A DNA stretch of 52,478 nucleotides from Candidatus Altiarchaeota archaeon (lineage in GTDB: Archaea; Altiarchaeota; Altiarchaeia; JAFGQM01). Positions 2,124 through 50,340 of this stretch are shown here, piece by piece (positions within the stretch are counted from its first letter, which is position 1; every line of letters begins with the position of its first letter). Made by a program: the position numbers and the translations under genes. The stretch covers positions 1 through 52,478 of the forward strand of contig JBFYKJ010000056.1 of NCBI GenBank assembly GCA_041306005.1, written 5' to 3'. Below the pieces are notes generated by a model. It made no database searches. It had not been told where the DNA came from and worked only from the letters and a program-made list of their open reading frames with translations.

Positions 2124-2279
2124 TCATTCAGGTATCAGCACGCCCTTTCTCAGCAGCTTCTGCATGAACTGGGTCGAGGTCTTGTGCCCGGTCCGGAGGA
2201 ATAGGACATCTGCATTAGGGTGCCCCGGCAAAAACGACATCTCGCCGAGAAGGTCGATTATCTTGTGCCGGACGCCCTC
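2124..2279 (-). other. In-frame continuation of the LpxC-like ORF beyond its TAG stop (51 sense codons, then TGA 2124-2126)
   Basis: The same frame as 2280-3140 reads EGVRHKIIDLLGEMSFLPGHPNADVLFLRTGHKTSTQFMQKLLRKGVLIPE. This aligns with the LpxC C-terminal HKxxD zinc motif and the catalytic GH(A/K) region. Confidence 0.75.
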
Positions 2280-3140
2280 CTAGCCGCCGTACCTGACGCC
2301 CGTCACGCCGCCGGGCGGATTGAGATACTGGGGGTTTGAGGGGTGGCCGAGGAGAAGGGTGTTCTCGTGCGTCATGCCGTGCATGCGCAAGGCGCTGGTA
2401 AGGTCCATGAGCTTTTGCCCGACCCGGCTCTTCGGGTAAAACCCCGGCGTGCGGGCGTTCATTATCTCCTTTTTGAACGCCTCTGTGTCCCCGATGGTCC
2501 AGGTGTAGGTCTGCGGCCCCCCGAACGCCTTGTGCGGGTAATCAAAGTGGTATGTGACAGTCGGCTCCCCCACAGCCGGACGCATTATCAGCATGTCGCC
2601 GAGTTTGGGGTCTGTGACCACTACAAGCTTTTCATCGTCGTGGAACCTCGCGGAGACTCCCGCCTTCTGCAAGCGCTCGTTGACGTCGCGGCCCGCCATC
2701 AGCATGTCGCCGGCGGCCTTCATGTTCAGGCGCAGGGTGGGCACCTTGGCGTCCTGCTCCCTGAGGCCGACGTGGTCTATTTCCCGGACATATGGGGATA
2801 CCGCGTCGGAGAAGCACGGCAGCGCGTTCCCCTTGACCATGTGTATCTCCGCGTTGTGCACACCCATCGCCTTGAGCGCCCCGAGTATGTGCTCGGCGGT
2901 GTAGACCTTTGCCCCGCTCTCGGGGTCCTTGAGTATTATCGTCCTGTAGGGCCAGCGCTTAAGCCGGACGTTGAAGAAGTTGACCGGTATGCGGTGCTTG
3001 CCCTTGACAAAGACTATGCCGGTGCCGACGCCGGCCGGCTTTATGTCGATTATGGAGTGGCTGCCCTGCGCCGAGCGCCCCTCGAGGCGGATGGACGCCT
3101 TCAGCGTGGCCTGCCGCTTGACCGGTTCTTGCGTTGCCAT
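2280..3140 (-). CDS. LpxC-family (UDP-3-O-acyl-GlcNAc deacetylase-like) protein, truncated as annotated by an in-frame TAG
   Basis: By-eye alignment to E. coli LpxC: ATLKASIRLEGRS..GTGIVF matches RTLKRIVQATGVG..NTGVIY, TAEHILGALKAMGV matches TVEHLNAALAGLGI, and NARTPGF matches RARTFGF. ATG 3140 (MATQEP) is preferred. An alternative GTG 3188 would overlap the PolD stop as GTGA. The ORF stops at TAG 2280-2282 just before the conserved HKxxD motif. Confidence 0.8.
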   Translation of the reverse strand: MATQEPVKRQATLKASIRLEGRSAQGSHSIIDIKPAGVGTGIVFVKGKHRIPVNFFNVRLKRWPYRTIILKDPESGAKVYTAEHILGALKAMGVHNAEIHMVKGNALPCFSDAVSPYVREIDHVGLREQDAKVPTLRLNMKAAGDMLMAGRDVNERLQKAGVSARFHDDEKLVVVTDPKLGDMLIMRPAVGEPTVTYHFDYPHKAFGGPQTYTWTIGDTEAFKKEIMNARTPGFYPKSRVGQKLMDLTSALRMHGMTHENTLLLGHPSNPQYLNPPGGVTGVRYGG

Positions 3141-3184
3141 CTTTGGTTTTCGCGTATAGGTCAAACAGGCGCGGCCTTGCTGGC

Positions 3185-4870
3185 TCACGCCGTCTTCCCC
3201 TCGAAATTCATGACCTTCATCTGCATGGTCTGGAGATCCAATATCGGCACCTGGCAGGGCGTCGGGATATGGCCCTGCTGCTGCTGGAAATCCGTCTGGG
3301 CCTGCCAGGTCCCGGAGTTTAAGACCATGACCCCGCGGTACATGGTATATCCATTCTTGTGGACGTGGCCGCAGTGGAAGACGTCCGGCACTGTGTCCAC
3401 GACCATATAATCCTTCTGCTCTGGGGCTATCTGCTCCTTAGTCCCGTATATCGGCGAGAGGTGGCGCTTCTTCAGGTATTCCACCTGCGCCTTCTCAGGC
3501 TTGCTGTAGGATAGGTGGGAGAGGGAAGAAATCAGCGCGTCCATGGAGGTCCCGTGGTACATCATGACGTCCAGGCCGTGGGCCTTCACCCTCCCGGGGT
3601 TGCCGATGAGGTGTACGTTCGAGTTAGCCTTCAGGGGCTCGAGGAACTCCGCAAGCGAGGGCTGCGGCTCGACCCGCCTCACCGCGTCGTGGTTCCCGGC
3701 GGCGATGATTATCTCTATGTACGAGGGGACCTGCGCCATCATCTTCGCGAAGTAGTTGTACTGCTTGTAGATGTCCGGGATCGCAAGCTCCTTCTCCTGG
3801 CCCGGGTATATGCCAATCCCGTCCACAAGGTCGCCGGCGATGAAAAGGTACTTCACCGACTGGGCGACGTCCTTTCTGGTCCCGGACGACAAATTCAGCC
3901 AGTCTATGAACTTCTGGAACTCGCGCTCCTTGAAAAGCTGGGAGCCTACGTGGATGTCTGACAGGAACGCCACTGATACCGGGTCCTCGCACTCGAATTT
4001 CGGCTTAGTCATCGGGATGTCGGGCTCGATGACCTCTTTTGCGAGTATGAGCTCGCCCTTGACGGTCCCAATGACGCCTATCACCTCGTCGTTCACGAGT
4101 ATCTTGTTCTTCTGGGCCGCCTCGCTGCTGTCTATGACTATTGCCGACCCCGTCGGGTCCTCGATCTCGATTATCAGGTTCCCCTTCTGGGACTGCCGCA
4201 TGTCGCGTATCATCCCGATTACCTTTATCTCCTGGTTGTTGTACTTGCCTATTGAGTTGAGCTCCACGGCGTCGCGCAGGTTGACACGGCTGGAGAGTAT
4301 GCCCTTGAGCCGCTTGTACCTGTCCCTGAAGAGCTCGACGAAATTTTCCACCGTCCCCTCGGAAGTGGAATTCCCGGTCACGTCCTTGTCCTTGTCTACA
4401 AGGACCCTGCCCTCTATCTGCGATGCGATGGGGGGCTTCCCGCGCTTGACGGTGAAGGAGTACTCCTCCAGCTTCTCCACCGGGAAGAACTCGGAGAGGA
4501 ACTCGCTTGTTATCATGAAGACGCCCTTCTCTTTAGCCTGGGCGATTATTGCCGAGGGGTCCAGCCCGCGCTCTTTTATGACTTCGACTGCGTGGCTGCT
4601 CAGGAGCGCGCCTGAACCGAGGAATGCGTCGTTTATGCCTTTCTCCTCGCTTGACAGTTTGGGCTCAACAGGCGGCTTTTGGGTTATCTGCGTGATTTTG
4701 ACGTCTTGCTGCACCTCGGGCTCGGGCTGTGCGGCGGCAGGCCCTTGGGCAAAGGATGCGAGAGACCCCGGTTTCACGCGGAAATTAGGGGTTCGCGGCT
4801 TAAATACCGGCGGCACCAGCCGGATTTGGCCCGACACAGCGGTTTGCAGGCCCCCCTCAAAACTGCCCAA
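3185..4870 (-). CDS. polB: DNA polymerase II (PolD) small subunit DP1
   Basis: Calcineurin-like phosphoesterase motifs of DP1: VAFLSDIHVGS, IAGDLVDGIGIYPGQ, AAGNHDA, HCGHVH. An OB-fold-like middle region is present. Only a TTG at 4870 opens the long N-terminal low-complexity region, so the exact start is uncertain. Confidence 0.88.
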   Translation of the reverse strand: MGSFEGGLQTAVSGQIRLVPPVFKPRTPNFRVKPGSLASFAQGPAAAQPEPEVQQDVKITQITQKPPVEPKLSSEEKGINDAFLGSGALLSSHAVEVIKERGLDPSAIIAQAKEKGVFMITSEFLSEFFPVEKLEEYSFTVKRGKPPIASQIEGRVLVDKDKDVTGNSTSEGTVENFVELFRDRYKRLKGILSSRVNLRDAVELNSIGKYNNQEIKVIGMIRDMRQSQKGNLIIEIEDPTGSAIVIDSSEAAQKNKILVNDEVIGVIGTVKGELILAKEVIEPDIPMTKPKFECEDPVSVAFLSDIHVGSQLFKEREFQKFIDWLNLSSGTRKDVAQSVKYLFIAGDLVDGIGIYPGQEKELAIPDIYKQYNYFAKMMAQVPSYIEIIIAAGNHDAVRRVEPQPSLAEFLEPLKANSNVHLIGNPGRVKAHGLDVMMYHGTSMDALISSLSHLSYSKPEKAQVEYLKKRHLSPIYGTKEQIAPEQKDYMVVDTVPDVFHCGHVHKNGYTMYRGVMVLNSGTWQAQTDFQQQQGHIPTPCQVPILDLQTMQMKVMNFEGKTA

Positions 4871-8869: not shown

Positions 8870-9652
8870 TCACTTGAAGAGCTTCTTCACCTTCTTATAG
8901 CCCGCAAGCGCCTTGTCCACCATCTGGGTGATCTCCTCCGGCGAGAACGCGCCTATGCCGCCCTTCTGCATGGCGTGGATGCGGTCGTCGGCGACGGTGA
9001 CAGTCAGCCTGGCGTCAAGCGCGTACTCCTCGTCAAGGATAGGGTCTAAGAGTATCTTCCCGCCTATCTTGGCAAAGGTGAACGACACCGGTATCTTCGT
9101 TATCGGGAGGTCCTTGCTCTTCTCCCTGATTATAACGCCCTTCTCCTCGTCGTACTTAGGCACCCATGTGGTGTTCAGGGCCGCAGTCGCCGCGAGCATG
9201 CAGGCGTCTAAAAGATTCCCGTCGTGGTTCAGCACGTGGATGTCTATAGACACCATCCACACCTTTTCACCCGGTATGATGCACATCTTGTCCAGGTCTA
9301 TCATGTGGGACTCGCGTATCCCCCTGTCTACGACACGGGCAAGCTCGATGGCGTCCTCGCCCGGCCTTCCCGTTTCGAAATCGGGTGAGGCGATGGGGAC
9401 AAGCTCCGCCGAGGTCATCATGACCCCGGAGTTCGGCCCGTCGGAGTACGGGTCGCCTGCGAGTATCTTTATCCCGCAGAGCACGTCTGTGTTGCCCAGC
9501 TTGACCCTCGCGCTGCCCTCCGCCTTCGTCTCTATCATGTTCGTCTCTATCTTGATATCGCGGATGTCGTCAAGGCCGCGGCCGTCAACGCGCCTGCCGC
9601 TCTCGACCATCCTGCCGATGAAGTGCTTCTTCAGCTCTTTGTCGATGTTCAT
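8870..9652 (-). CDS. rrp42: Exosome complex component Rrp42
   Basis: RNase PH-like fold: GRRVDGRGLDDIRDIKIETN, EGSARVKLGNTDVLCGIK. Located downstream of rrp41. Confidence 0.9.
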   Translation of the reverse strand: MNIDKELKKHFIGRMVESGRRVDGRGLDDIRDIKIETNMIETKAEGSARVKLGNTDVLCGIKILAGDPYSDGPNSGVMMTSAELVPIASPDFETGRPGEDAIELARVVDRGIRESHMIDLDKMCIIPGEKVWMVSIDIHVLNHDGNLLDACMLAATAALNTTWVPKYDEEKGVIIREKSKDLPITKIPVSFTFAKIGGKILLDPILDEEYALDARLTVTVADDRIHAMQKGGIGAFSPEEITQMVDKALAGYKKVKKLFK

Positions 9653-9691
9653 TTTGTCGTGTTTTTACGCAATCTTTATGTCGTTATCGCT

Positions 9692-10411
9692 TCACAGCTT
9701 GGCGTACTTGTCCTTGAGCGCCTTCTTCTGCAGCTCATAGACGGCCTTGCAGCCCTGTATGCCGTATGCCTTCGCCTTCTCGAGCTCCTCCTTCGTGAAG
9801 TCGCCGTCCAGCTGCAGGAGCACCATCTCGTCCTTTGACGGGACGTATGCTATGGGCATGTCGCCCTCGCCGAAGTTGTCTTCCAGCTGGTCGAGGTCGA
9901 GGATTATCTCCCCGCCCGCCTTGCCCGCCGCGCACGCGACGACAAGGTCCCTCATCGGGATGCCCGCGTCCGCAAGGGCCACTGCGCCCGCCGTTAGAGC
10001 GGCGCACCTTGTCCCTGCGTCAGCCTGGAGCACTTCCATGAAGACGTCCACGACGCTTGTCGGGAAATGGTTGAGGAATACCACTCTCTCGAGCGCCTCC
10101 CTTATCACCATGCTTATTTCCGTGCTCCGCCTGTCGGGGCCCGGCTTTTTCCTGTCGTCCACGGAGAACGGCGCCATGTTGTACCTGCATCTTAGCACAG
10201 CCTGCGTGGTCTCCTGGTTGTGCTTCGGGTGCATCTCCCTCGGCCCGTAGACCGCCGCCATTATCTTGTTCTTGCCCCATTCGAGGTAGCAAGACCCGTC
10301 CGCCCTCTGCAGGACCCCGGCCTCTATCTTTATAGGCCTTAGCTCGTCAAACTTCCTGCCGTCATGCCTCTTCCCCTTAACGATCAAGGGGACATCGCTT
10401 TTCATGCCCAT
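9692..10411 (-). CDS. rrp41: Exosome complex exonuclease Rrp41
   Basis: RNase PH domain: [65 protein letters not shown]. Confidence 0.92.
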
Positions 10412-10435: not shown

Positions 10436-11512
10436 TCAGCTCGCGTCTTTGTCGTCGTTTTGCTCGTCGTCCCAGTCCCTTTTTGCTTCGGAGACCGGCT
10501 CTTTTGAGTATGATTCCGCGTCGGCCTCGTCGTACTTTGGCTTGTCCGGATAGCCGCCCGCTTCCTTGTACTGCCCCTCGGGCTTGTCTTCGCGCTGGCC
10601 GCCTTCCCTATGGCCGCCCTCGTCGCGCCGCCTGCCCTCATCACGGTAAGAGTCCCTTCGCCCACCGCGGTCCCCGCCGCGCCTGTCATCCCTGCGCCGG
10701 TTATCATCCCTGCGGTCGCCGCCCCGGCCGTAGCCGCCCCTGCGGTCGCCGCCCCGGCCGTAGCCGCCCCTGCGCTCATCGCGCTCTTCCCTGTCCTGCT
10801 GGGCCGCGCGGGCGAGCCTCTCAAGCTCGACTGGGTCCTTGCCCATTGCCTTTATCCCTTCTACCAGGTATTCGGATATCCTGTCGGTGAGGCCCTTTGT
10901 ATGCGACTCGGCCTCTATCTTCTTTATCGCGCCTATTATGAGCTGGGACAGATCGTCCGGCCCGTCTATCCATATTATGCCGTTCTGCCCGACAACGACC
11001 CTGCAGTTCGTCTTGTCGCGCAGGAGCGAGAGCATGGACTTCTTGCTGCCGATGACGCGCGGTATCTTCTTTGCGTTGACCGTGAGTATCACCCCGCCTT
11101 CAAGCTTGCGGGGCCCGTCGACATAACTGGCCTTGATCTCGTTGACCTCGCTGATTTTTACCGACACGACGTCGCCCTCCTTAAAGAGCGTCCTAAGGTC
11201 GAGCATGTCGTCGTCCTCGCGGTCGCGCCTCCGCTCCTTGTTGAGGTACGCCGTGTAAGCTGGGGTTATCCCTATCAGCCAGCCAGTGCGCATGACCTCA
11301 GTCACAACGCCAACGACCATGTCGCCCTCCTTTGGCACATATTGGCCGCTGAGAGGTATGACAGAAACGTCCTTCTCGCCGCTCTTCAGGCCGAATACCG
11401 CGGACCGCAGGCCCTCCGCATCGCTGAATGTGTTGTCGCCCTTGCGCGATTTGCCCAACAGCTCGCCGGGAATCACTATATCCCCCCTAAGCTCAAGTTC
11501 GCCCATCATCAA
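10436..11512 (-). CDS. rrp4: Exosome RNA-binding subunit Rrp4 with a C-terminal extension of about 120 aa rich in Arg/Gly/Asp
   Basis: The first ~235 aa show the N-terminal, S1 and KH layout (IVIPGELLG, GDMVVGVVTEV, VVVGQNGIIWIDG). The tail from about residue 236 reads ...RRGGYGRGGDRRGGYGRGGDRRDDNRRRDDRRGGDRGGRRD... Confidence 0.88.
   Translation of the reverse strand: MMMGELELRGDIVIPGELLGKSRKGDNTFSDAEGLRSAVFGLKSGEKDVSVIPLSGQYVPKEGDMVVGVVTEVMRTGWLIGITPAYTAYLNKERRRDREDDDMLDLRTLFKEGDVVSVKISEVNEIKASYVDGPRKLEGGVILTVNAKKIPRVIGSKKSMLSLLRDKTNCRVVVGQNGIIWIDGPDDLSQLIIGAIKKIEAESHTKGLTDRISEYLVEGIKAMGKDPVELERLARAAQQDREERDERRGGYGRGGDRRGGYGRGGDRRDDNRRRDDRRGGDRGGRRDSYRDEGRRRDEGGHREGGQREDKPEGQYKEAGGYPDKPKYDEADAESYSKEPVSEAKRDWDDEQNDDKDAS
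10711..10770. repeat. Perfect 30-bp tandem duplication inside the rrp4 tail
   Basis: TGCGGTCGCCGCCCCGGCCGTAGCCGCCCC occurs at 10711-10740 and again at 10741-10770. On the minus strand it encodes RGGYGRGGDR twice. Confidence 0.9.
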
Positions 11513-22641: not shown

Positions 22642-25600
22642 CTACATCACGCCCATGCACGCCTCGTCCCAGGTGCATTTCTCGGTGTGGAGTTCGAAGT
22701 GGTCTTTGCAGTTGCCCTGCAAGAAAGGCTTCCCGCTCAGTTCGCACACCACACTGCTGCAAACATCGTATTTCCATCGGCAGTAGTTGCAGTGGTGCTT
22801 ATCGCCGTCGGAGTCACACTCCCCGCCGGTGCCCTTGCCCACAGAGAACCATCCCTCTACGCAAACATCGTATTTACCGCAACTGCGGTCCACGCCCAGC
22901 GGGCCGGTGTTCCCGGCCGCCAGCTTCCAGATGAAGCCGCCCCCGGGTTCCCCGGGGTACCCGGCCCCCTGGTGGTAGTTGAACAAACAGGTCCACTCCT
23001 CGGTGGGGCACGCCTTTATCATGCCCCAGTCCTCGTCCCCGTCGCACATGGCGTACAGCTCGCTGGCGTTGTACCAGCCGTATTCAAGCTCCGACGCCGA
23101 TGTGTCGGGCCCTTCAGAGCTAGACCCGCCGGTGCCCTTGCCGCGCTCCTCCGCCGTGCCGTAGAATGCCCGCTCCCCTATGCCCCGGCAGTAGAGGAAA
23201 TCGTCGGTGCCGACGAGCCCGTCCTCGTCGTACACCCTGTCGCACGGGAAATTCTCATCGCAGGTGCAGTCCTCATCTTTCTCCCCGTTGCAGTTGTTGT
23301 CCAGGCCGTCGTGGCATATCTCCAGCCCGTAGCGGCTTAAGTTCTGCATCTCCACATAGCAATACGGGCAGAACTGGGCTATGCCCCCCTCGTTGTCTTT
23401 CGCCAGGGCGTCTATGCAAAGGTAGTCGTCCTCGGTCAGCGCGCCGTCCTGCGTCACGTCGGCGCATTCTAAGACCGCATCCTGCTCAACTCTATCGTTC
23501 AGTATCCAGCCCTCTATCAGCACGTCACTCGCGGTGATGGCGCCGTCCTGCGTCAGGTCGCCGGGCGTGCCGTTGCAGCCGAATCCGTAGACTACGAGGC
23601 ACGCAACCGGTATCGCCGAGCTGCCGGCGATGGCCTGCAGGCACTGCAAATCGGCCGAATCCAGCGCCCCGCTCCCGTCAAAGTCCGTCACGTTGAGCAA
23701 AGCCGGGTGCGGGTCAACGCCGAATCCGGCCGCGCCCACGATTCTCCCCATGACGGCGACGTCTGTCTGGCCTATGCCTTCGTCGTCGTCCAGGTCACCG
23801 GGCTCGCCCAGCGAGATGTTGAAGCAAAAGCCGCCGTTCATCCGCCGGGAGCAGTCCGTCGCCCCCGTGTCCCCAAGCCACTTGGTGGCCACTACGTTCA
23901 CCAGGCAGGCCTCGTCGTCAATATCGACGTCCCCGTCGTTGTCCATGTCGCCGCAGCCCGCATACTCGTTCCGCTCGACCTGCGACGGCACCTTCTTGAA
24001 GAAATCGCCGAAAAGGCTTATGTCATAAGACGCGGCGACGCAGTCATCGTTCCAGTCCCCGCGGCCGGCGTCCGGTTCCAAACAGTGCATTATGTCCTGG
24101 CCGCCGCTAAGGGTCATGCCGCTCCTTATGCAGGATATTATCTCGGCCTCGGCATACGTCTTCTTGCCACGGTAGTCATACACGCACTGCCTGGCCATCG
24201 GCCGGTCCTCGCAATCCCCAACCTCGCATTCAGATGCCCTTGCCTTTGACGTGTCGACGACGAATATCTCCAGCTCCGCGAGCCCGGACGCCCCGAGCAG
24301 GAGCCCTATCTTGTATACGCCCTCGTGGGGCGGGGCGAACAGCGCGACCGTGTATGTCCGCAGGCGCTGATCCCATGCGAGCGCAGACGTCTGCCCGTAC
24401 AAGACCGCCTTTATATTGGCAAGGCCCTCCACGTCCTTCTCGCCCTGCTTGACCCTCACATTCACGGTGAACGTCTCCTTGGGCTCCAGTATCTTCGGGC
24501 TCGCGCTCTGCTCGGAGGTGACGCCCGGGCGCGACAGCTCGGTGTCAAAGGAGATGGTGAAATTCTGCTCGTATATGACGCCCCCCTCTATCCTCTTGAG
24601 GTATATCTCCGCCCGGTGGCCGCCCGGGTAGGGGGTGTTCACGATGACCGTATAGTTCCCGCCTGAACCTGTGAGCTTGGGCCGTTCCGGCAGCCAGATC
24701 CCGCCATCAAGATAGTAAACCCCGACGTCGCTGGCGGTCGGCGAGTCCAGCGGCGTGCCGTTGAAGAGGATGCTCATGCCTATCTCGATGGGCGGCGTTT
24801 CGTCCATTATCGCATAGGGGGTGAGCTCGAAGTAGCTGTTGCTCACGGGCATGACGTTAACCCCCACTACTTTCATGCCCTTCCTGCCGTCATATAGCGC
24901 CAAGACCGCCAGGTCGTAGGTGCCGGGCGCATCGGGCGCTGCGCACGATGCCTTCCATACGCCCCCCGAGATCGCCGCCCCGCACGGCTGACCCGCCAGC
25001 TCGAAGCTGACGTTGGACTGCTGCGTCACGTCGGTCTGCCCGTAGAGGATCCTTGAGACGCTCGCCGCGAAGGGCCTCCCGGCGGCGGCCGGGTTCGGGA
25101 ACGTCAGCGCGCCGAATGTGAAGTTGTATTCCGGCGGCTCGGGAGGCTGCAGCGTGATTGTTACGGACTTGTTCTCGCCCGGGCCCGCGCTGTACTGCTT
25201 GGACCTGTAGTTTGAATACGCCTCCAGGTTCGATACGGTGAAATAGAAGGGCTTTGACGCCCCGACCGGCACGAACTCGGTGTAGCCGGAGGGTGCCGGG
25301 AGGAGCGCGCCCCCATACCCCGAGCCGTATACCTTAGTGCCGTTGGCCGTCCAAAGCTCCACCGTGGCGTTGGCGGTCAGAATCCTGCCGGCCTTGTCCA
25401 ACACCCTTGCCCTCGCGTTGCCAATCTGCGCGCCGCAAGTGACTTTTAGGTTTAGCGTGTTGGGCCCCGCATCCAGGGCAATGCTTGCACTGGCGCCCAC
25501 ACAGCCCGTTTCGAGCGCTGAGGCGAAAACGGTCGCGCCGGCCGAGAGCTGGAACTCGGCGCATCCGACCGAAAGCGGCTTTTGCCCCAGCTGCTCGCCG

Positions 25601-26478
25601 ATAAGGGAGTGCACCCTGGCCGAGCCGTTGACGGGCTTGCCGCCCTGGTCCCGGACGCACACGCTCAGCACTGCAGGCTCCGGCGCCGAAGCGCGCATCT
25701 GTACTAGTAGTTCCCTTTCCTCGCCAAAACCCAGCATGGTCGGGCTCGCCCTGCCGTCGTACTGCCCATAGCCCGCCGCATCGGCGATGACCGCATACCA
25801 GTTGCCCGAATCAAGGGAGAACGAGCCCATTCCCGCTATCGGCTTGGCGGCGGCTATCGTGTGCGCATTGCCGTTGGGTATCACGACGGTGACGTTTGCC
25901 CTGATGAAAGACCCGGCTTCATCCCTGACTGTGAGCCTCAGGGTGCCCTTGGGGGTCTGCGGCTTGTCGAAGAAATCGGCCGGCAGGCTCACCGGGATCG
26001 TCACGGTGCCCGCGTCAAGGGGGTACGGGTCCGATACTGCCGTCTTCCCGTTCAACGGGTTCCTGACGGCGGCGGTCACGCTGTGGCCGGATATGCCGCC
26101 GAAGGTGAACTCGCTCTTCTTTCCCTCAGAAGAGCATATCTGCCCGCCGTCCGCATCGTTGAGGCTGACAAATAGCGAAGCTGGGACCTGGCCGGCTATT
26201 TTCACCACAACGGTCTTTAGATTTTCCGAAGGGGGGCAATCCGCCAGGCACGACAACGAGGTCTCGGGGGCATCGCATGCGCCGTCGCCGCACAGCGGTT
26301 CGGCCTCAGATGCCGCCGGGCCGCTTGGCCAAAGAAGGATGACCGATATTATTAACAGCGCGAGTATGCCCAATGGAAACAATATCGCGGGTATGCGGTG
26401 CTCGTCAAAAAAGCCGTCAAGGCGGGCGGCTTCCAGGGCGCGCCATGAAAAGTCGTCCAGCTTCCCGAATGGGGGCAT
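22642..26478 (-). CDS. Giant membrane-anchored, Cys-rich surface protein with three dockerin-like modules (paralog A)
   Basis: 1278 aa. N-terminal cytoplasmic motif LDDFSWRALEAARLDGFFDEHRIP, followed by one TM. CGDGACD...CLADC module at 26236-26292. A long beta-rich region of about 650 aa. Six DxDxDG-type Ca-loop segments at 23398-24063. MopE-like ICHDGLDNNCNGEKDEDC near 23255-23325. Cys-rich C-terminus. Confidence 0.85.
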   Translation of the reverse strand: MPPFGKLDDFSWRALEAARLDGFFDEHRIPAILFPLGILALLIISVILLWPSGPAASEAEPLCGDGACDAPETSLSCLADCPPSENLKTVVVKIAGQVPASLFVSLNDADGGQICSSEGKKSEFTFGGISGHSVTAAVRNPLNGKTAVSDPYPLDAGTVTIPVSLPADFFDKPQTPKGTLRLTVRDEAGSFIRANVTVVIPNGNAHTIAAAKPIAGMGSFSLDSGNWYAVIADAAGYGQYDGRASPTMLGFGEERELLVQMRASAPEPAVLSVCVRDQGGKPVNGSARVHSLIGEQLGQKPLSVGCAEFQLSAGATVFASALETGCVGASASIALDAGPNTLNLKVTCGAQIGNARARVLDKAGRILTANATVELWTANGTKVYGSGYGGALLPAPSGYTEFVPVGASKPFYFTVSNLEAYSNYRSKQYSAGPGENKSVTITLQPPEPPEYNFTFGALTFPNPAAAGRPFAASVSRILYGQTDVTQQSNVSFELAGQPCGAAISGGVWKASCAAPDAPGTYDLAVLALYDGRKGMKVVGVNVMPVSNSYFELTPYAIMDETPPIEIGMSILFNGTPLDSPTASDVGVYYLDGGIWLPERPKLTGSGGNYTVIVNTPYPGGHRAEIYLKRIEGGVIYEQNFTISFDTELSRPGVTSEQSASPKILEPKETFTVNVRVKQGEKDVEGLANIKAVLYGQTSALAWDQRLRTYTVALFAPPHEGVYKIGLLLGASGLAELEIFVVDTSKARASECEVGDCEDRPMARQCVYDYRGKKTYAEAEIISCIRSGMTLSGGQDIMHCLEPDAGRGDWNDDCVAASYDISLFGDFFKKVPSQVERNEYAGCGDMDNDGDVDIDDEACLVNVVATKWLGDTGATDCSRRMNGGFCFNISLGEPGDLDDDEGIGQTDVAVMGRIVGAAGFGVDPHPALLNVTDFDGSGALDSADLQCLQAIAGSSAIPVACLVVYGFGCNGTPGDLTQDGAITASDVLIEGWILNDRVEQDAVLECADVTQDGALTEDDYLCIDALAKDNEGGIAQFCPYCYVEMQNLSRYGLEICHDGLDNNCNGEKDEDCTCDENFPCDRVYDEDGLVGTDDFLYCRGIGERAFYGTAEERGKGTGGSSSEGPDTSASELEYGWYNASELYAMCDGDEDWGMIKACPTEEWTCLFNYHQGAGYPGEPGGGFIWKLAAGNTGPLGVDRSCGKYDVCVEGWFSVGKGTGGECDSDGDKHHCNYCRWKYDVCSSVVCELSGKPFLQGNCKDHFELHTEKCTWDEACMGVM

Positions 26479-26546
26479 GGGGAATTAAATGGAGGTGCAT
26501 TAAAAAGGGCTAATGGCTAATGCCTTGCCGCGGCACGACAATCCCG

Positions 26547-29500
26547 TCATCCCGACGCGTGGTCCGAGTACCTGGTCCTGCCGGTGAGTATGTGCCATAC
26601 TACACGGTAGTCGTCCTCGTACCTCGTCCCGTAGTCCATGTGTATCAACGGCCTCTGCGACTGGTCGGCGCCCGAAAACTCGACTATGAGGTAGCAAGTG
26701 CCGTAGTGGCCGCCCTTCATGGAAAAGCCGTATGAATGGGTGTTTTGTATGGAGCCGCCCCTGTCATCCCCCTCCTCGATGACGTACAGGCCGTCGGGGT
26801 CCTTCGCGAGATAGACGCGCGAGATGCCTTTTGCATCGTACCCCTCGGGTATGTAGACCGCAAGCAGGTGGGTGCTGGCAGACTCCGGCTTCCAGAGGAG
26901 GTACAGCTCGTAGCGGTTGTCAAAAGTCCCTTCCCCGGACTCCAGGCCGCCAAGGCTGCCCATGCACAGGCCCTCGGCCGGGCAGACCTCGGATTCGCCG
27001 CCCTCGCCATCGTCGCAGCCGCCCATGCCCCCGCCGCTCGGCCCGCACTCTTCCTTCTGGCATACGTCGAATTCGAAGCGGCAGTAGCGGCATTTTTTCT
27101 CATAGATGAGCTTGCAGTTCGAGCCTGAAGATGTGCCCACCGAGTTCCACCCGGTATGGCAGTCCGGCGCGTCGTGGCAGTCGTATGTCGCGCCCAGGGG
27201 GCCTATGTTCCCCTCCGCGCTCATCCACCTAAAGCCCTTCATGTCGTTTATCTCCGATGCGCTTGTCGTCCCGCCGCCCTCTTCTCCGCCGCCCTCGTTG
27301 TTCTCTATCCAGTCTTCCGTATTCCCCGAATTGTGCGAGAAGCCCGGCAGGAAGTTGAAGAGGCACGTCCATTCCCCGCCCCCGCAGTACATTATGTTGC
27401 CCCAGCCCTCCTCGCTGCACATGCCGTCGACGTCGTCTATCGGGTTCCAGTCAAAGCCGCCCTCGGGCTCATCATCCTCGTCTTCCTCTTCGTCCTCGGT
27501 CGCCCCCGCCGCCCACTGGCTGAAGTCCCGCTCCCCGAAAGCCGTGCATACGGCGAAATCGTTCGTCTCCGGCAGGCCGTCGATGTCGTAGAGTTTTGAG
27601 CACGACTGCCCGTCGTCGCAGGTGCAGTTCTCGTCCGTATATCCGTTGCAGTCGTTGTCAAGGCCGTCGTGGCATATCTCCTGCCCGTAGCGGCCGAGGG
27701 CCTGCAGGTCCCGCGCGCAGATGCCGCAGAACGGGGAAGTGAGCGTTATATCGCCATTTATGGTACCGTCCATGCAGAAGTAGTCCTCATCGTCGACGAC
27801 CGCATCATTGTTCATGTCGGCGCACTTGAACACGGTCGTTGAATCGACCCTGTGGTTGACTATCCAGCCTTCTATCATGAAGTCCGTGTCGTCTATCTCC
27901 CAGTCCCGCGTGAGGTCGCCGGGGGCGTATGTCCCGTTCGGGTAATCTGGCCCCGGGCCGGGCTTTGTCGCGCAGCCGAAGTCGTAGATGGCAAGGCATG
28001 AAATCGCTATGTTCTTCCCATTCACTATGCTGTCAAGGCAGTCGTAATCCTTTATATCCACATTGCCGCTCATGTCAAAGTCGGTGATGTTGAGCAGGAA
28101 CTCGTCGGGCGTGACGCCGTAGCCTGCAATGCGGACGACGTCCCCCATTATCCCGAGGTCCGCGGCGTCCATGTTGCCGCTGCCGTCAAGGTCCCCGGGC
28201 TCGCCCACGCTTATGTTGAAGCAGAAGCCGCCCCGCATCGAGCTTGCGCAGTCCTCGTCGCCGTAGTCGCCGAACCACTTGGTGGAGAGGATGTTGGTTA
28301 TGCAGTCATAGTCATCCTCGTCGGCGTCACCGTCGTTGTCCATGTCCCCGCAGTAGCGGTACTCGTTGCGCTCCTCCTGCGAGGGTATCTTGGTGAAGAA
28401 GTCGTTCATCAGGCCGAGATCCGAAGAGGTCAGCATGCAGTCCGTGTCCCAGTCGCCGCGGCGGGCGGAGGCCGACAAACAGTGGGTCACGTCCTGCGAG
28501 CGTATCATCAGGCCAGTGCGTATGCAGGTCACCACGTCGCTCTCGGAGTAGGACTTCTTCGAGTCGTACTCCGCGACGCACTCCCTCACCATCGGCCGGT
28601 CGACGCACTTCTTTATGTCGCAGTCGTCCGCGCGGCTCTTGCCGGTGTCGACGACGAATATCTCAGTGTAAGCTATCCGCTCCTGCTCTATGTAGAACTC
28701 CAGCTTGTAGATGCTCTCGTATTCGGGGGCCTTAAGCGAGACCGCGTAAGCCTTCTGCGCCGAGTCCCACGGCATCGATTTCGTGGTTTCGGCAAGCCCT
28801 ACCTTTAGGTTGGCAAGGCCCTCGATAGCCTTCCCGCCCTGGGTTATCCTCAGGTAGGCGGTGAAACTCTCTTCCGGCTCGAGTATGCGCGGGCTCGCGC
28901 TCACCTCGGTCGATACGGCAACCTGCGACGGCTGGGAGTCGAAGGTGATGGTGAAATTCTGCTCATACACAGCATCGCCCACCGTCTTCATCAGGTATAT
29001 CTCCGCCCGGTGGTCGCCGGGGAAAGGCGTGTTTGCGGCGATCGTGTACAATCCGTCGGCGCCCTTGAGGGCGGGCTTGTCCAAAGCCCATATCTTGCCC
29101 GGCACGTAGTATATGCCGACGGAGCTCGCATCGGGCGCGGCCAGCGGGGTCCCGTTGAAGGTTATGTCCATCTCGATGTCTATCGGCGGCTGGACGTCGA
29201 GGATAGCGTGCGGGACCAGCTCAAAGTAGCTGGACGCGCCAACCGCGAATACCTTGACCTGCTGGGTCTTGCTGCCCGCCCTGCCGCTGTAAAGCGCGTT
29301 GACCGCGAGATCGTAGTCCCCGGCCAAATCGGGGGCCTGGCACTCGGCGGTCCACACCGAGCCCTTAGACACTGCGCATGGCTGGGCGGCGAACTCCACC
29401 GTGACGTTGGCTAAGGAAGTCACGTCCGTCTGGCCGTAGAGGACGCGCGATACGGTCACCTTAAATGTGTCAAGGGCGACTACGGGGCTTGGATAAGCGA

Positions 29501-30890
29501 TGCCGCTGAACGAGAAGTTGTACACCGGGGGTTCAGGTATGGGGAGGTCGAGGGTGACCGTCTTGTTGGCGCCGGGATTTACGCCGTACTTCGACGAGGT
29601 GAATGCCGAGTAGCCGGCGACCCCGGTCACGGTGAAGTAGACCTTCTTTGACGAGTCGGCGGCGACGTACTCGGTGTACCCGGTTGGCGCCGCCAGGAGC
29701 GAGCCGCCAAAGCCCGATCCGCTTATCTTCCGGCCGTCCGACGAGAAAGCCGTGACAGTGGCCTGGCGGGTCACGTCGGTCTCGTTGGCCGTGACCTTCA
29801 CCCTCACCTGCCCGACCTGCGGGCCGCACGTCAAATTCAGGCTGACAGCATTCGAGCCGGGGGCGAGCGCCACCTCTTTCGCGGCGCTTGAGCATCCGGG
29901 TGAGTCAAAAGACACCTCCACCCTCGCACCCGACAGTAGGCTGAACTGCGCGCAGCCGGATATCAGGGGCGCCGTGCCGAGCGAGTCGCCGCTCAGCGAC
30001 GATACGCCGACGCTGCCCTCGAGCGCGCTGCCCGCGGAGTATGCGCATGCCCTGAGCGAGGCCTGAACGGGCGCGGGCACCAGCGGGTCCATCTGCGCAA
30101 TGATCTCCCTCTGCGCGCCCTGCTCGACGTTTATCGGGCTCTTCCTGCTGTCATACTGGGCATAGCCCTCGGCGTCGACGATTATCGCATACCACTTGCC
30201 GGCGTCGACTGTGAAGAAATCACTGCCCGGCACCGACTTCGTGCTGACTATCGTGTGGGATGAGCCGCTTGGTATCACAAGGGTGACCTTTCCGGTGACC
30301 GAAAAGCCGGATTCTGCATCCTTGAGCGTCACGCGGACAACGCCCTTGGGGATCGCTGTCTGCTCGAAGAATCCCGACGGCATTGCGACAGTTATCTCCG
30401 TTTCCTTGCCTTCAAGCGATATCAGGTCCGACTGCGCAGCCTTGCTGTTCTTCGGGTTTGACACCACCGCGCGGGCGCTGTCGCCGGACAGGCCCGAAAA
30501 TGTGAACGAGCTCTTCTTCCCGCTGGAAGCGGCAAGCCGGACACCCTCGGCATCCTCGATGCGGACGTCGATGCTGGCATCCACCTGCCCGAATATCAAG
30601 ACCTTTACTGTCTTGAGGTCGCCCTCCTTCTTCGCGCAGTCCTCGGGGCAGGATATCAAATCCTCGTCCCTCGCGGGCTCGCACGCCCCGTCGCCGCAGA
30701 ATATCTCGGCCTGGGGGGCGCCCGGCGGCCCGGAGGGCTGGGATATGAGCAGGAGCACCGCTACAAGCAGGATTATTATGGCGAGGGGCAGCACCAAGGC
30801 GGGTATCCTATACTGCTCAAACACGCCGTCGAGGCGCGTCTTCTCGACAAGCGTCCACGAGAAGCCGTCAAGCGACTCCTTAAGAGGCAT
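26547..30890 (-). CDS. Giant membrane-anchored, Cys-rich surface protein with three dockerin-like modules (paralog B, extended C-terminus)
   Basis: Collinear with paralog A: MPLKESLDGFSWTLVEKTRLDGVFEQYRIP plus a TM, CGDGACE...CPEDC at 30636-30698, dockerin-like segments at 27753-28460, and ICHDGLDNDCNGYTDENC. It additionally has an acidic tract (EDEEEDEDDE) and an extra C-terminal domain of about 150 aa. ATG 30890 is chosen by homology to paralog A; the track start is 30941. Confidence 0.85.
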   Translation of the reverse strand: MPLKESLDGFSWTLVEKTRLDGVFEQYRIPALVLPLAIIILLVAVLLLISQPSGPPGAPQAEIFCGDGACEPARDEDLISCPEDCAKKEGDLKTVKVLIFGQVDASIDVRIEDAEGVRLAASSGKKSSFTFSGLSGDSARAVVSNPKNSKAAQSDLISLEGKETEITVAMPSGFFEQTAIPKGVVRVTLKDAESGFSVTGKVTLVIPSGSSHTIVSTKSVPGSDFFTVDAGKWYAIIVDAEGYAQYDSRKSPINVEQGAQREIIAQMDPLVPAPVQASLRACAYSAGSALEGSVGVSSLSGDSLGTAPLISGCAQFSLLSGARVEVSFDSPGCSSAAKEVALAPGSNAVSLNLTCGPQVGQVRVKVTANETDVTRQATVTAFSSDGRKISGSGFGGSLLAAPTGYTEYVAADSSKKVYFTVTGVAGYSAFTSSKYGVNPGANKTVTLDLPIPEPPVYNFSFSGIAYPSPVVALDTFKVTVSRVLYGQTDVTSLANVTVEFAAQPCAVSKGSVWTAECQAPDLAGDYDLAVNALYSGRAGSKTQQVKVFAVGASSYFELVPHAILDVQPPIDIEMDITFNGTPLAAPDASSVGIYYVPGKIWALDKPALKGADGLYTIAANTPFPGDHRAEIYLMKTVGDAVYEQNFTITFDSQPSQVAVSTEVSASPRILEPEESFTAYLRITQGGKAIEGLANLKVGLAETTKSMPWDSAQKAYAVSLKAPEYESIYKLEFYIEQERIAYTEIFVVDTGKSRADDCDIKKCVDRPMVRECVAEYDSKKSYSESDVVTCIRTGLMIRSQDVTHCLSASARRGDWDTDCMLTSSDLGLMNDFFTKIPSQEERNEYRYCGDMDNDGDADEDDYDCITNILSTKWFGDYGDEDCASSMRGGFCFNISVGEPGDLDGSGNMDAADLGIMGDVVRIAGYGVTPDEFLLNITDFDMSGNVDIKDYDCLDSIVNGKNIAISCLAIYDFGCATKPGPGPDYPNGTYAPGDLTRDWEIDDTDFMIEGWIVNHRVDSTTVFKCADMNNDAVVDDEDYFCMDGTINGDITLTSPFCGICARDLQALGRYGQEICHDGLDNDCNGYTDENCTCDDGQSCSKLYDIDGLPETNDFAVCTAFGERDFSQWAAGATEDEEEDEDDEPEGGFDWNPIDDVDGMCSEEGWGNIMYCGGGEWTCLFNFLPGFSHNSGNTEDWIENNEGGGEEGGGTTSASEINDMKGFRWMSAEGNIGPLGATYDCHDAPDCHTGWNSVGTSSGSNCKLIYEKKCRYCRFEFDVCQKEECGPSGGGMGGCDDGEGGESEVCPAEGLCMGSLGGLESGEGTFDNRYELYLLWKPESASTHLLAVYIPEGYDAKGISRVYLAKDPDGLYVIEEGDDRGGSIQNTHSYGFSMKGGHYGTCYLIVEFSGADQSQRPLIHMDYGTRYEDDYRVVWHILTGRTRYSDHASG

Positions 30891-30936
30891 AAGGAGATTA
30901 ATGCCGGGGGGAATAAAAGCCTGTATATCATAAATG

Positions 30937-30977
30937 CCCATATGGAAGAAAATCCCATATGGAAGAAAAGCCCATAT
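30937..30977. repeat. 17-bp tandem repeat, about 2.4 copies (CCCATATGGAAGAAAAK)
   Basis: Units at 30937-30953 and 30954-30970, with a partial unit at 30971-30977. Located 47-87 nt upstream of the preferred start of giant paralog B. Confidence 0.85.
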
Positions 30978-44801: not shown

Positions 44802-47800
44802 TCACTTCTCCCTCGAAAGCTGCACCAGCTTCTTCAGCAGCTCCTCGTCCTCCTTGTTCATGAACTTCTTGCCTTTCTTTAGGATGGTCTCGTATTCGTT
44901 GAACGTTATATGGGTGAAGAGGATGTCCCCCTCCACGATGTTCCTCCCGACGAGCGGCCCGTCGATGGCGACAGCCACCTCCATCCCCTTCTTCGCCTCG
45001 TCCAGCTTGTCGGTCTTGTCTTGTATTGATTTTACCGTCCCGACGCGCGTGCCGTCCTCCTTCATCAGCGGGTATCCCTCGCGTATCCTGCCCTTTATCA
45101 CCGCGACGCCTATTATCGCGGGGTCTGAGCGCCTGAACGTGCACCCCTCGAGGAACTTGATCTCCGCCGGGAATGGTATCGTGTCGAATATCGCCATCTC
45201 CTGCTGGCGCTTGACGTCCTTGACCCACTCCCCATAATCCTCTATTATCTTGAAGATTATCTTGTTTGCGAGGAGCTTGACCTTGGCCGTTTCGGCGTAT
45301 TGGAGCAAATCCTCGGCTACCGGCGCGTTGAAAGCGATGACTATCCCGTATTCGGGGTTCTGCTTCCTCATGGATTCCGCCTCCATGATGTCCGTCTTTG
45401 ACACCGCCCCGATATCCGCCTTCCTGACCGGTATCCCGAGCTTCTTGAACATGCCGAGGATGGCTTCCAAACTTCCGAGGCTGTCCGACCGGACGACAAG
45501 CCCGACGTTTTCGTGGTCGAAGCGGACGGACTCGAGCTCCTTTCTTATTATGGCCTTCAGCTCCTCGGCTTTCTTCGGGTCGGCGCCCTCGACAACGTAG
45601 ACCTGCCCGCCGGGGAGGGCGTTCTCGACGCCGGGGCCCACCAGTTTCAAACCGCTCGCCGCGGAGATTGACGCTATGTTGTCGAACTTGTCCCTAGGGT
45701 CGCGCATCTCGTCCAGGGGCTTGGGTTTAAGTAGAGCCTTGACCTTCGTCTCTACGGGCCCGTCCTTGCCGCTCATGACGACAGTGTCACCCCGCTTGAT
45801 GGTCCCGTCATATAATATTAAATCAAGGCTCGTGCCCAGTCCCTTCTCCTCCTTGACTTCCAGGATGCTCGCCTTGCCCGGGCCCTTCACCTCTATCTGC
45901 AGGTTCTTTTCAAGGTATTTCTGGGAAAGCCCCGTTAAGAGCATCATCGCCTCGGCGATGCCCTCGCCCGTTTTTGCCGACACGGGCACTATGCAGACCT
46001 GCTTTGTGAAGTCCCCGACACGGTCGAACCTCTCGGAGCTGATGTTCATCTCGCTTAGGCGACCGACCAGTTCATACAGTTTTTGCTCGACCTCCTTTCT
46101 CACGAAGTCCTGCTGCTGCTTGACTGCCTTAATGAAGCAGTACTCGCCGGTGTTGTGCCACCCGGAAAGAAGGTCTATCTTGTTAGCCACGACGATGAAC
46201 GGGGTCTTGTAGTTCTTGAGTATCTCAAGGGCTTCTATAGTCTGGGGCATGAAGCCCTCGCGGATGTCGACTACGAGGACGGCGAGGTCTGCGATGCTGC
46301 CGCCCCTCTTCCTTAAATTAGTAAACGCCTCGTGTCCCGGGGTGTCGATGAATAGGAGTCCGGGGATAGTCACGTCCACATTCATCGCCTCAAGCTGTTT
46401 CCCGCACAGGTTTTTTATTACGTCGATGGGGACTTCTGTCGCGCCGATGTGCTGGGTTATCCCGCCCGCCTCCCTCGCGGCGACAGAGGACTCCCTGATC
46501 TTGTCGAGAAACGAGGTGTTGTGTATTATGCACCGGTCGGCAATGAAGTTATGGGTCTCCGGTTGGGTGAAATCATAGACGTTGCATTCGCCCCTTATCT
46601 CCCGCGCCCCGGCGACCCGCGTGCAGACGAAGTCCGAGTTGACGATCCCGTGGAGCCTCCCGGCGTGGTTGAAGACAAGGACAGGGTATCGGGCCGCGCT
46701 CTCAAGCCCGGGCAGGAGCGACAGACCCTTCGCGGTCAGCATGAAGCGGCTTTCCGCCTTGGCGAGCAGCCCTTCGCTTGACAGGAAGGTCAGGTGGTTC
46801 AAAAGCCTCTTGTGCGGCACCGGAAGCCTCTTGTAAAGGGCGGAATATGTGAGCGGGCGCTCCAGCGCCTTCAGCGCCGAGAGCCTCTCGCGCATGGTGC
46901 CCTTATACCCTTTGCCCAGCACCCGCTTCTGCAGGCTCTTTATGAAAGACCTGAGGTACGCGCGTGAGACGAAGGGGTATTTCTCATAAGCCTTCTGGTA
47001 GGGTATCTCCGTCTCCATCCCCGAAAGGCCGAATGAGACGCGAAGCTCCCTGACTTTGGAGCCGGGTATCGGGAGGAGGTCAAAGATCCTGCTCGTTGTC
47101 GCCTTCTTGTGCATCGAATCCAGGCACGCCTGCTTCCTCGCAAGCCTGAAGCCTATGGACTCGCTGAAGTTGCAAAGGTACTCGCTTCCCGAGATTTTCA
47201 GCCGATAGCCCCCCCTCGAGCTGCTCACGACCGACGGGCAGCCGAACCGCTGCAGGGCTATTGCAAGCTTTCTTATCATGTCCCCGCTCATAGAGAGGAC
47301 CTCAACACCCGTTGATTTGGACACATAGCCGTCGGTGTCGAAATAGCCTGAGATGAATGCGGAGAGAAACGGGTTTGGCGACCTGAGGACGAGGTCCGGG
47401 ATAGTCATCGTGCGGCTCTTGTCGCGGCGCGGGTAGGCGAACACCTGGCAGAGGAGTTCGCCGAATGTCTTGTTGCCGGTGTTGGCAACGCTGTTAGTCG
47501 TCCGCTGGGGGGTAATGCGGATGCCCGTGCCAAAAGCGCTCATCATCGCCCGCCCGTACTCGGCGATAAGGTCCCCGTCGGTGTTTGAGAGGATTGCATT
47601 CCCCCGCGTACCGTCGCCCCATAGGGCGCCCATGGCATAAAAGGCGTCCTTGAACTGCTCTTCGGTCTTGGGGAGGCTGATCAGCGAGCCCCTGTGGCTG
47701 GCGCGCTGTTTTGTGGTGGAGTACTTGATGGCTGTGATAGAGTCATAGAGTTTTTGCGGGGGGATTTTGCCCCTCGCAAGGGCGACCGCGTCAGCGGCCC

Positions 47801-48401
47801 TAAACCTACCATGCATGGTGCAGTCATGCACCGAGCGGGTGATGAGCGCCCGCTTCTTTTCCTTGGCAAGCGCCCCGAGGCGCGCTGCCATTTCCGGCTC
47901 GAAGAAGGCTATGAAATCCCGGGACTCTGCGAGCTTTAGCAGGAAAAGCTCCTTGAAGCGCGCCAGGCTGATTTGCGGGGGCTGGACCCTGGCAGGGACT
48001 AAGATGAAGTCCCCGGTCTTGAGAGAATCGGCGCGCACCTTTGTTATCATCCCGTCCCCGCCCATCGAGAAGAACGGGTGCTCGGGGGTCACTTTTACCC
48101 TGGAGCCGTGCCTTGTCGCGACCTCGACGACCTTATCGGCCTTCAGCCTCCAGATGTGGCTCGCCTTCCTGGCCGATATGGCGCCCGTCTCGTCAAGCGA
48201 GAGGAGTTTTATATCAGCGCCCGAGAGGTCCAGGATGTCGCCGCGCCCGTCGGGGACGCGGGGCATCTTGGTGGAGAGCTCGTCGTAGATGCCCTTTATC
48301 GGCCTGATGCTCCCGTTTGCCAGGGCTATCTCAGTGTCGCCGGTGACGCACTTCCCGTGGTCAACGTGCCCGAGCACGGAAATGATAGGCTGACGGATCA
48401 T
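44802..48401 (-). CDS. infB: Translation initiation factor aIF5B (IF2-like GTPase) interrupted by an intein in the P-loop
   Basis: Exteins: MIRQPIISVLGHVDHGK | TSFLDKIRESSVAAREAGGITQHIGATEVP, DTPGHEAFTNLRKRGG, ANKIDL. The mature length would be 588 aa. Confidence 0.93.
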   Translation of the reverse strand: MIRQPIISVLGHVDHGKCVTGDTEIALANGSIRPIKGIYDELSTKMPRVPDGRGDILDLSGADIKLLSLDETGAISARKASHIWRLKADKVVEVATRHGSRVKVTPEHPFFSMGGDGMITKVRADSLKTGDFILVPARVQPPQISLARFKELFLLKLAESRDFIAFFEPEMAARLGALAKEKKRALITRSVHDCTMHGRFRAADAVALARGKIPPQKLYDSITAIKYSTTKQRASHRGSLISLPKTEEQFKDAFYAMGALWGDGTRGNAILSNTDGDLIAEYGRAMMSAFGTGIRITPQRTTNSVANTGNKTFGELLCQVFAYPRRDKSRTMTIPDLVLRSPNPFLSAFISGYFDTDGYVSKSTGVEVLSMSGDMIRKLAIALQRFGCPSVVSSSRGGYRLKISGSEYLCNFSESIGFRLARKQACLDSMHKKATTSRIFDLLPIPGSKVRELRVSFGLSGMETEIPYQKAYEKYPFVSRAYLRSFIKSLQKRVLGKGYKGTMRERLSALKALERPLTYSALYKRLPVPHKRLLNHLTFLSSEGLLAKAESRFMLTAKGLSLLPGLESAARYPVLVFNHAGRLHGIVNSDFVCTRVAGAREIRGECNVYDFTQPETHNFIADRCIIHNTSFLDKIRESSVAAREAGGITQHIGATEVPIDVIKNLCGKQLEAMNVDVTIPGLLFIDTPGHEAFTNLRKRGGSIADLAVLVVDIREGFMPQTIEALEILKNYKTPFIVVANKIDLLSGWHNTGEYCFIKAVKQQQDFVRKEVEQKLYELVGRLSEMNISSERFDRVGDFTKQVCIVPVSAKTGEGIAEAMMLLTGLSQKYLEKNLQIEVKGPGKASILEVKEEKGLGTSLDLILYDGTIKRGDTVVMSGKDGPVETKVKALLKPKPLDEMRDPRDKFDNIASISAASGLKLVGPGVENALPGGQVYVVEGADPKKAEELKAIIRKELESVRFDHENVGLVVRSDSLGSLEAILGMFKKLGIPVRKADIGAVSKTDIMEAESMRKQNPEYGIVIAFNAPVAEDLLQYAETAKVKLLANKIIFKIIEDYGEWVKDVKRQQEMAIFDTIPFPAEIKFLEGCTFRRSDPAIIGVAVIKGRIREGYPLMKEDGTRVGTVKSIQDKTDKLDEAKKGMEVAVAIDGPLVGRNIVEGDILFTHITFNEYETILKKGKKFMNKEDEELLKKLVQLSREK
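46518..48350 (-). mobile_element. 611-aa intein with LAGLIDADG homing-endonuclease domain inserted after GHVDHGK
   Basis: Block A CVTGDTEIAL (Cys1 codon 48348-48350). Block B VKVTPEHPFF. LAGLIDADG motifs FYAMGALWGDGT and FISGYFDTDGYV. Blocks F/G NVYDFTQPETHNFIADRCIIHN (Asn codon 46518-46520), followed by the +1 Thr. Confidence 0.9.
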
Positions 48402-50288: not shown

Positions 50289-50340
50289 GTCAGTCTAAGG
50301 GCGGATGCCTTGGGGAGATTAACCGCCCTACCAAGAAAAA

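Follow-up and report, generated by a model that had tools for sequence, protein, structure and literature searches.

An archaeal LpxC-like gene, otherwise intact, with an in-frame TAG: probably a very recent nonsense mutation and unlikely to be recoding

A stretch of 52,478 nucleotides from a Candidatus Altiarchaeota archaeon (contig JBFYKJ010000056.1 of assembly GCA_041306005.1, positions 1 to 52,478 of the forward strand), hereafter called the window, carries a gene of the LpxC family whose reading frame is interrupted by an in-frame TAG. A preliminary description of this DNA had offered three explanations for the interruption, namely, a very recent nonsense pseudogene, a base-call or assembly error, and programmed readthrough or recoding by pyrrolysine (Pyl). 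The first two fit the evidence presented below, whereas the third is disfavored by the Gln codons of the relatives, by the 24% share of TAG among the stop codons, by the lack of an unusual downstream structure, by the synonymous divergence, and by the lack of tRNA genes and Rfam elements in the window. The features of the locus are the following.

2124..3140, minus strand: whole coding region of the LpxC-like (PF03331) gene, 338 codons with the in-frame TAG as codon 287, collinear throughout with the related protein P0002
3138..3140, minus strand: ATG, probable start; the database gene call P0001 begins here, and the upstream GAAAACCAAAG-ATGGC is also found in locus L001
2883..2897, minus strand: AEHIL motif, upstream of the stop, in which E83 and H84 correspond to the general base E78 and the zinc ligand H79 of E. 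coli LpxC
2279..2283, minus strand: C-TAG-G pentamer, read from GGC TAG GAG, which would have been CCAGG before the C>T change; the changed base is the inner C of a CCWGG site
2280..2282, minus strand: in-frame TAG, codon 287, where the nearest orthologue has CAG (Gln), from the sequence and the orthologue alignment
2127..2279, minus strand: 51 sense codons past the TAG, still evolving as coding sequence (ratio of nonsynonymous to synonymous divergence, dN/dS, 0.088; GC content at third codon positions, GC3, 0.76; 44 of 51 residues identical to P0002)
2253..2270, minus strand: RHKIID motif, behind the TAG, in which H292, K293, and D296 correspond to E. coli H238, K239, and D242 (H238 and D242 being zinc ligands)
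2181..2192, minus strand: TGHK motif, behind the TAG, in which H319 corresponds to the catalytic H265 of E. coli
2124..2126, minus strand: TGA, the original stop; the convergent ilvD gene ends 31 nt away, and P0002 ends at a homologous ...GVLIPE
3185..4870, minus strand: small subunit of PolD (DNA polymerase II), the upstream neighbour, kept in L001

The frame runs through ...GVTGVRYGG to the TAG at 2282-2280, continues for 51 sense codons (EGVRHKIIDLLGEMSFLPGHPNADVLFLRTGHKTSTQFMQKLLRKGVLIPE, opening with EGVRHKIIDLLGEM and closing with RTGHKTSTQFMQKLLRKGVLIPE), and ends at the TGA at 2126-2124. A second reading of the sequence agrees with the preliminary description on each of these points. 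When the TAG is read through, the translation matches the Pfam profile PF03331 (LpxC) with an E value of 3.9e-34 and 118.8 bits, the cut-off being 27. The gene had at first been taken to extend from a GTG at 3188. The P0001 call and the conservation of GAAAACCAAAG-ATGGC correct this extent, and the start is likely the ATG at 3140 rather than the GTG. In the orthologous locus L001, an in-frame TAA was read by eye four codons 5′ of the corresponding ATG.

In E. coli LpxC, E78 is the general base, H79, H238, and D242 are the zinc ligands, and H265 is catalytic. In phmmer comparisons with PDB sequences, the tail encoded past the TAG aligns to the HKxxD...GH region of the LpxC proteins of P. aeruginosa, Aquifex, and E. 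coli; its counterpart in the P. aeruginosa structure 5u39 reads “defvkHKilDaigdl ... ksGHaln”. Family alignments show E90 and H91, the equivalent of the AEHIL pair, as invariant columns, and the C-terminal invariant columns E301, R304, H305, K306, D309, G312, and H332 (P0002 numbering) all fall past the TAG. The catalytic set is fully encoded in the DNA, yet H292, D296, and H319 lie outside the standard translation product, so that no single polypeptide made by ordinary translation would hold it. The alignments to LpxC structures and relatives agree with the earlier statement that a product ended by the TAG is without the equivalents of H238, D242, and H265.

The structural consequences were followed on the intact orthologue P0002, for which the AlphaFold2 model has a pLDDT (predicted local distance difference test) of 88 and a pTM (predicted template modeling score) of 0.88. 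When this model is compared with the PDB by Foldseek, LpxC structures rank at the top with E values of about 1e-24 and target-normalised template modeling (TM) scores of 0.81-0.89, which corresponds to the two-domain LpxC fold. A stop at residue 300 in P0002 numbering deletes from the model helix 301-314, strand 323-328, helix 332-344, and strand 348-350. The interrupted position itself, by alignment and model, lies in a loop that directly precedes the HKxxD helix, and its residue takes no part in catalysis. The 286-residue product is expected to be inactive because it would be without two of the three zinc ligands (H292 and D296) and the catalytic H319, and would be missing the two helices and two strands that close domain II.

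Relatives of the gene were sought in 5.8 billion protein clusters. Besides P0001, which is the window's own truncated call, only P0002 and P0003 were found. P0002 (351 amino acids) is 80% identical and collinear over its full length, while P0003 is 41% identical. The two contigs that encode P0002, L001 and L002, share 81% nucleotide identity with the window over 1395 nt, and since this alignment reaches into the upstream gene and covers the C-terminal end of the PolD small subunit, L001 and L002 represent the orthologous locus. At the site of the stop, the window reads GGC-TAG-GAG, whereas both L001 and L002 read GGG-CAG-GAG. More distant members of the clade have CAA (L003), CAG (L034), Gln (P0152), or Glu (P0004), and none of the five other clade members has a stop codon there. 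Given the Gln codon of the relatives, the TAG is one C>T transition away from a conserved ancestral CAG. The stop thus lies a single substitution from the orthologous sense codon and removes essential residues, as would be expected of a nonsense pseudogene. The preliminary description had proposed to look at the codon occupancy in related genomes and at the conservation of the tail; the answer is a Gln or Glu sense codon and a tail that has been kept.

The rate of evolution is that of a working gene on both sides of the stop. In the comparison of the window with L001 by the Nei-Gojobori method, dN/dS is 0.166 up to the TAG (299 codons) and 0.088 beyond it (51 codons), the synonymous divergence (dS) being 0.65 and 0.88, respectively. 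GC3 is 0.76 in the tail and 0.72 in the body. When P0003, P0004, and P0005 serve as outgroups, the relative-rate test assigns 14 derived replacements to the window copy and 16 to P0002 (p = 0.86), and the window copy shows zero deviations at the invariant columns. Further lesions or relaxed selection were detected by none of these three approaches (dN/dS, relative rate, and invariant columns) in the LpxC-like gene. On this comparative evidence, the gene is not decaying and the TAG is its only lesion. Such a stop must have arisen very recently, be an error, or be subject to readthrough. No other convincing case of a gene interrupted by a single stop was found in the window, where the other pairs of open reading frames (ORFs) in the same frame are adjacent genes or antisense frames.

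The explanation favored here, with a probability of about 0.6, is an ordinary, real, and very recent nonsense mutation. In this LpxC-like gene for an archaeal zinc deacetylase, one C>T transition would have turned the conserved CAG (Gln) into TAG, and translation would stop at codon 287, leaving a product of 286 residues. As the gene is otherwise intact and under purifying selection, the change, if real, must be very recent. If the T is real in the DNA, as would have to be the case, the locus is most likely a pseudogene that has only just arisen or an inactivated allele that still segregates in the population, and the gene would be dispensable.

Three points weigh against this explanation. In the first place, a gene with neither another lesion nor relaxed selection looks just as it would under a sequencing error or readthrough. 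Secondly, no reads, coverage data, or second assembly of this population were found, so that a consensus error remains compatible with what is seen. Indeed, another contig from the same species was retrieved neither by the 5.8-billion protein search nor by a scan of JGI metagenomes, which gave the P0002 contig only, and exact-protein look-ups for P0001, the PolD small subunit, and ilvD matched nothing. A scan of the GTDB species representatives with two peptide patterns also gave no relative, a pattern-limited result that is not proof of absence. The third point concerns the origin of the mutation. It has been reported that CAG>TAG amber hotspots within CCAGG in lacI are due to deamination of 5-methylcytosine (Coulondre et al. 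1978, reviewed in PMC12606429). The present change, too, is a C>T at the second C of CCAGG that converts a Gln codon to TAG, and by analogy with lacI deamination of 5-methylcytosine is a possible cause. The window, however, shows only a mild shortage of CCWGG (129 observed versus 159 expected, 0.81), and no methyltransferase is seen there. The E. coli hotspots are caused by Dcm, whereas for this archaeon there is no evidence of CCWGG methylation; moreover, the nearest orthologue of the archaeal gene has GCAGG at the site, not CCAGG.

A base-call, consensus, or assembly artefact is the unlikely, though most serious, alternative to a real nonsense mutation. The real gene would then carry CAG and be intact, and the T at 2282 would be an error or a wrongly chosen minor variant. 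Such an error would explain the absence of any other defect, given that the tail has a dN/dS of 0.09, that there is no acceleration in this lineage, and that all invariant residues are present; it would also require just a single transition. In addition, the T creates a CTAG tetranucleotide, which is strongly under-represented in the window (29 observed versus 77 expected). If the CCWGG site is methylated, platform-specific miscalls could also have arisen. On the other hand, the Pfam hits that were checked for coverage all reach both ends of their profiles and show no sign of frameshift, and for this reason the contig looks accurate. By our own estimate, too, stop codons that arise from random consensus errors are much rarer than real young pseudogenes.

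Another tetranucleotide, GATC, is likewise strongly under-represented in the window (78 observed versus 214 expected); speculatively, this avoidance might come from a restriction-modification system.

Any functional decoding of the TAG, whether by readthrough or by Pyl, is judged improbable, and the site is unlikely to be programmed recoding. TAG is an ordinary stop codon in this genome segment, where it terminates 7 of the 29 Pfam-supported genes (24%), each with full profile coverage. The genes that end in TAG with complete profiles include ilvD, HMG-CoA reductase, PsmA, Elp3, PfkB, and dCMP deaminase. The preliminary description had noted that ilvD, psmA, HMG-CoA reductase, and elp3 have the expected lengths when read to their TAG stops and had rejected a global reassignment of the codon; the Pfam matches, which reach the profile ends, support both statements.

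Tolerated or programmed readthrough of UAG independent of Pyl would restore Gln if the codon were read at some frequency by a suppressor tRNA or by the near-cognate tRNA-Gln(CUG), giving some full-length enzyme and possibly serving regulation. Natural yeast tRNAs place Gln, Tyr, and Lys at UAG (PMC4150775), so misreading of this kind could restore the ancestral residue. By analogy, low-level misreading could recreate the wild-type protein, which would not in itself point to a programmed event. The perfect preservation of the tail would also be accounted for. Nevertheless, this possibility is quite remote. The stop is not conserved, a sense codon being present in all five other clade members, and the 126 nt from the TAG onward fold no better than shuffled sequences (z = 0.43 for the minimum free energy in pseudoknot-free folding), so that the downstream RNA structure which the preliminary description suggested looking for did not appear. 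Synonymous divergence is not lowered past the stop (0.88 versus 0.65 before it), and there is therefore no sign of an overlapping RNA element under conservation. Thus, neither a conserved stop nor a stimulatory structure or suppressed synonymous rate, the combination that marks programmed readthrough, is found here. A suppressor would be costly, as about one gene in four in the window has TAG as its stop. The only demonstrated cases of stop-codon readthrough in Archaea to date are those of selenocysteine (Sec) and Pyl (PMC8211752).

A further likeness is retroviral. UAG readthrough of the murine leukemia virus (MuLV) type inserts Gln and needs a conserved stop and a downstream pseudoknot on eukaryotic ribosomes. 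The archaeal gene resembles it in that UAG is followed by G and that Gln is the residue to be restored. It differs in that neither the conserved stop nor the downstream structure is seen, and the MuLV system is eukaryotic.

The insertion of Pyl at the TAG, in an archaeon that would encode Pyl, is less probable still. An in-frame TAG with a conserved downstream frame in an archaeal gene is the formal signature of a Pyl gene, and the likeness extends to mtmB, mtbB, and mttB of Methanosarcinales and Methanomassiliicoccales, in which the in-frame TAG is also followed by a conserved and essential C-terminal coding region. However, the TAG of those genes is conserved among orthologues and their genomes avoid TAG as a stop (PMC3941956), whereas here the orthologous codons are CAG, CAA, or a Glu codon, neither TAG nor Lys, and TAG is common. 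The maximum reported for the Pyl-using Methanomassiliicoccales is 11% of stops (PMC3941956), against 24% in the window. The gene is not a methylamine methyltransferase, and the interrupted residue is the noncatalytic loop position ahead of the HKxxD helix. Across the 52 kb of the window, ARAGORN found no tRNA gene, no Rfam element reached its gathering threshold, and no pyl or methylamine methyltransferase gene was present among the Pfam hits.

The idea that the protein naturally ends at the TAG, with a merely coincidental match downstream over 153 unconserved nt, or that the C-terminal piece is made separately, can practically be dismissed, since nothing beyond the existence of the stop codon speaks for it, the tail is 86% identical to that of the orthologue with strongly constrained replacements, the invariant catalytic columns of the family sit in the tail, and each relative is a single chain of 325-359 residues. 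Separate expression of the tail was rejected because no ATG, GTG, or TTG occurs in frame between the TAG and the HKxxD motif; the first one, the Met of GEM, comes only after that motif.

The interrupted gene belongs to a small clade of archaeal LpxC-like proteins, which comprises five clusters at 90% identity (window 2124-3140 and loci L001-L004 and L034-L037) together with P0004. Its members have about 325-359 residues and keep all the LpxC catalytic residues, and one of the records is labelled Candidatus Micrarchaeota in its metagenome-assembled genome (MAG) annotation. Of 1.84 billion representatives scanned in full with HMMER, no more than three have E < 1e-30. With the clade profile, five members score 358-590 bits, and the best bacterial LpxC scores 122 bits. 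Bacterial LpxC is the UDP-3-O-acyl-GlcNAc deacetylase of the Raetz pathway, and the archaeal proteins resemble it in the PF03331 match, in the fold, and in the E-H, HKxxD, and GH motifs. They differ in their archaeal host, in a length greater by about 40-50 residues, in scores below the equivalog cut-off, and in the lack of neighbours of the lpxA and lpxD type. In this regard, the window protein and three clade members score 61-100 bits with TIGR00325, the NCBIfam lpxC equivalog, whose cut-off is 187.25, and the Raetz-pathway partners lpxA, lpxD, and fabZ are absent among the Pfam hits of the window and of loci L003, L034, and L036. To our knowledge, Archaea do not make lipid A. As judged from the modeled fold and the predicted active site, the protein is a member of the LpxC superfamily and not demonstrably LpxC by function.

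The gene contexts of the clade differ by locus: PolD small subunit and ilvD in one case, ArgJ, ArgB, and ArgD in another, and MsrB, PEP-utilizers, MscL, and PadR in a third. For this reason, no inference of function can be drawn from the gene neighbourhood of the clade as a whole. In L003 (316-5481) and L004 (90-5255), the LpxC-like gene lies between ArgJ and ArgB (AA_kinase) and is followed by a class-III aminotransferase (ArgD-like). This arrangement hints that these proteins may act as N-acetyl-amino-acid deacetylases; the other loci have no such context.

The remainder of the window is archaeal in content, with genes for the PolD small subunit, exosome Rrp4/41/42, SBDS, PsmA, Pop5, Fen1, Elp3, aIF2-gamma, S6e, and an aIF5B that contains an intein. 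The aIF2-gamma is 71-77% identical to those of five MAG species (loci L006-L010) and about 50% identical to those of Bathyarchaeia, Woesearchaeota, and Asgard, which places the window in a little-described lineage of Archaea. In Rrp4 (10436-11512, minus strand), the S1 and KH domains occupy residues 58-186 and are accompanied by a C-terminal low-complexity tail of about 130-150 residues, rich in RGG/RGGYGRGGDRR repeats and acidic residues, which to us looks unusual for an archaeal Rrp4. The aIF5B gene (44802-48401, minus strand) is interrupted by its intein at residues about 56-628, where the Pfam matches Intein_splicing and LAGLIDADG_3 fall; the latter marks a homing endonuclease of the LAGLIDADG type. 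Two adjoining giant ORFs at 22642-30941 (minus strand), one of 1278 amino acids with a dockerin type I domain and the other of 1464 amino acids with no Pfam hit, are probably surface or secreted proteins. At 48498-52185, a GH5/GH42-like glycosidase is found together with another protein that has a RET_CRD-like cysteine-rich domain. The Rrp42 region is mis-assigned by naive longest-ORF calling, and the plus-strand ORF at 8913-9740 (275 amino acids, no Pfam hit) was rejected as a gene, being an antisense artefact of Rrp42 (8870-9652, minus strand).

For annotation, the LpxC-like gene should be marked as interrupted, that is, as a pseudogene or a possible error, and it should be taken neither as a 286-residue LpxC nor as evidence of stop-codon recoding. 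If UAG were decoded at a useful efficiency, either as Pyl or, with the help of a near-cognate or suppressor tRNA, as Gln, so that the interrupted gene gave a full-length enzyme, this would be the first archaeal stop-codon readthrough outside the paradigm of Sec and the Pyl methyltransferases, but such an outcome is held to be very improbable. If instead the T were confirmed by reads, the locus would show cleanly the very first stage in the loss of an accessory gene. Beyond the fate of this single copy, the more interesting lead is the family itself, as a handful of uncultured archaea appear to carry a distinct zinc deacetylase of LpxC fold with no lipid A pathway around it.

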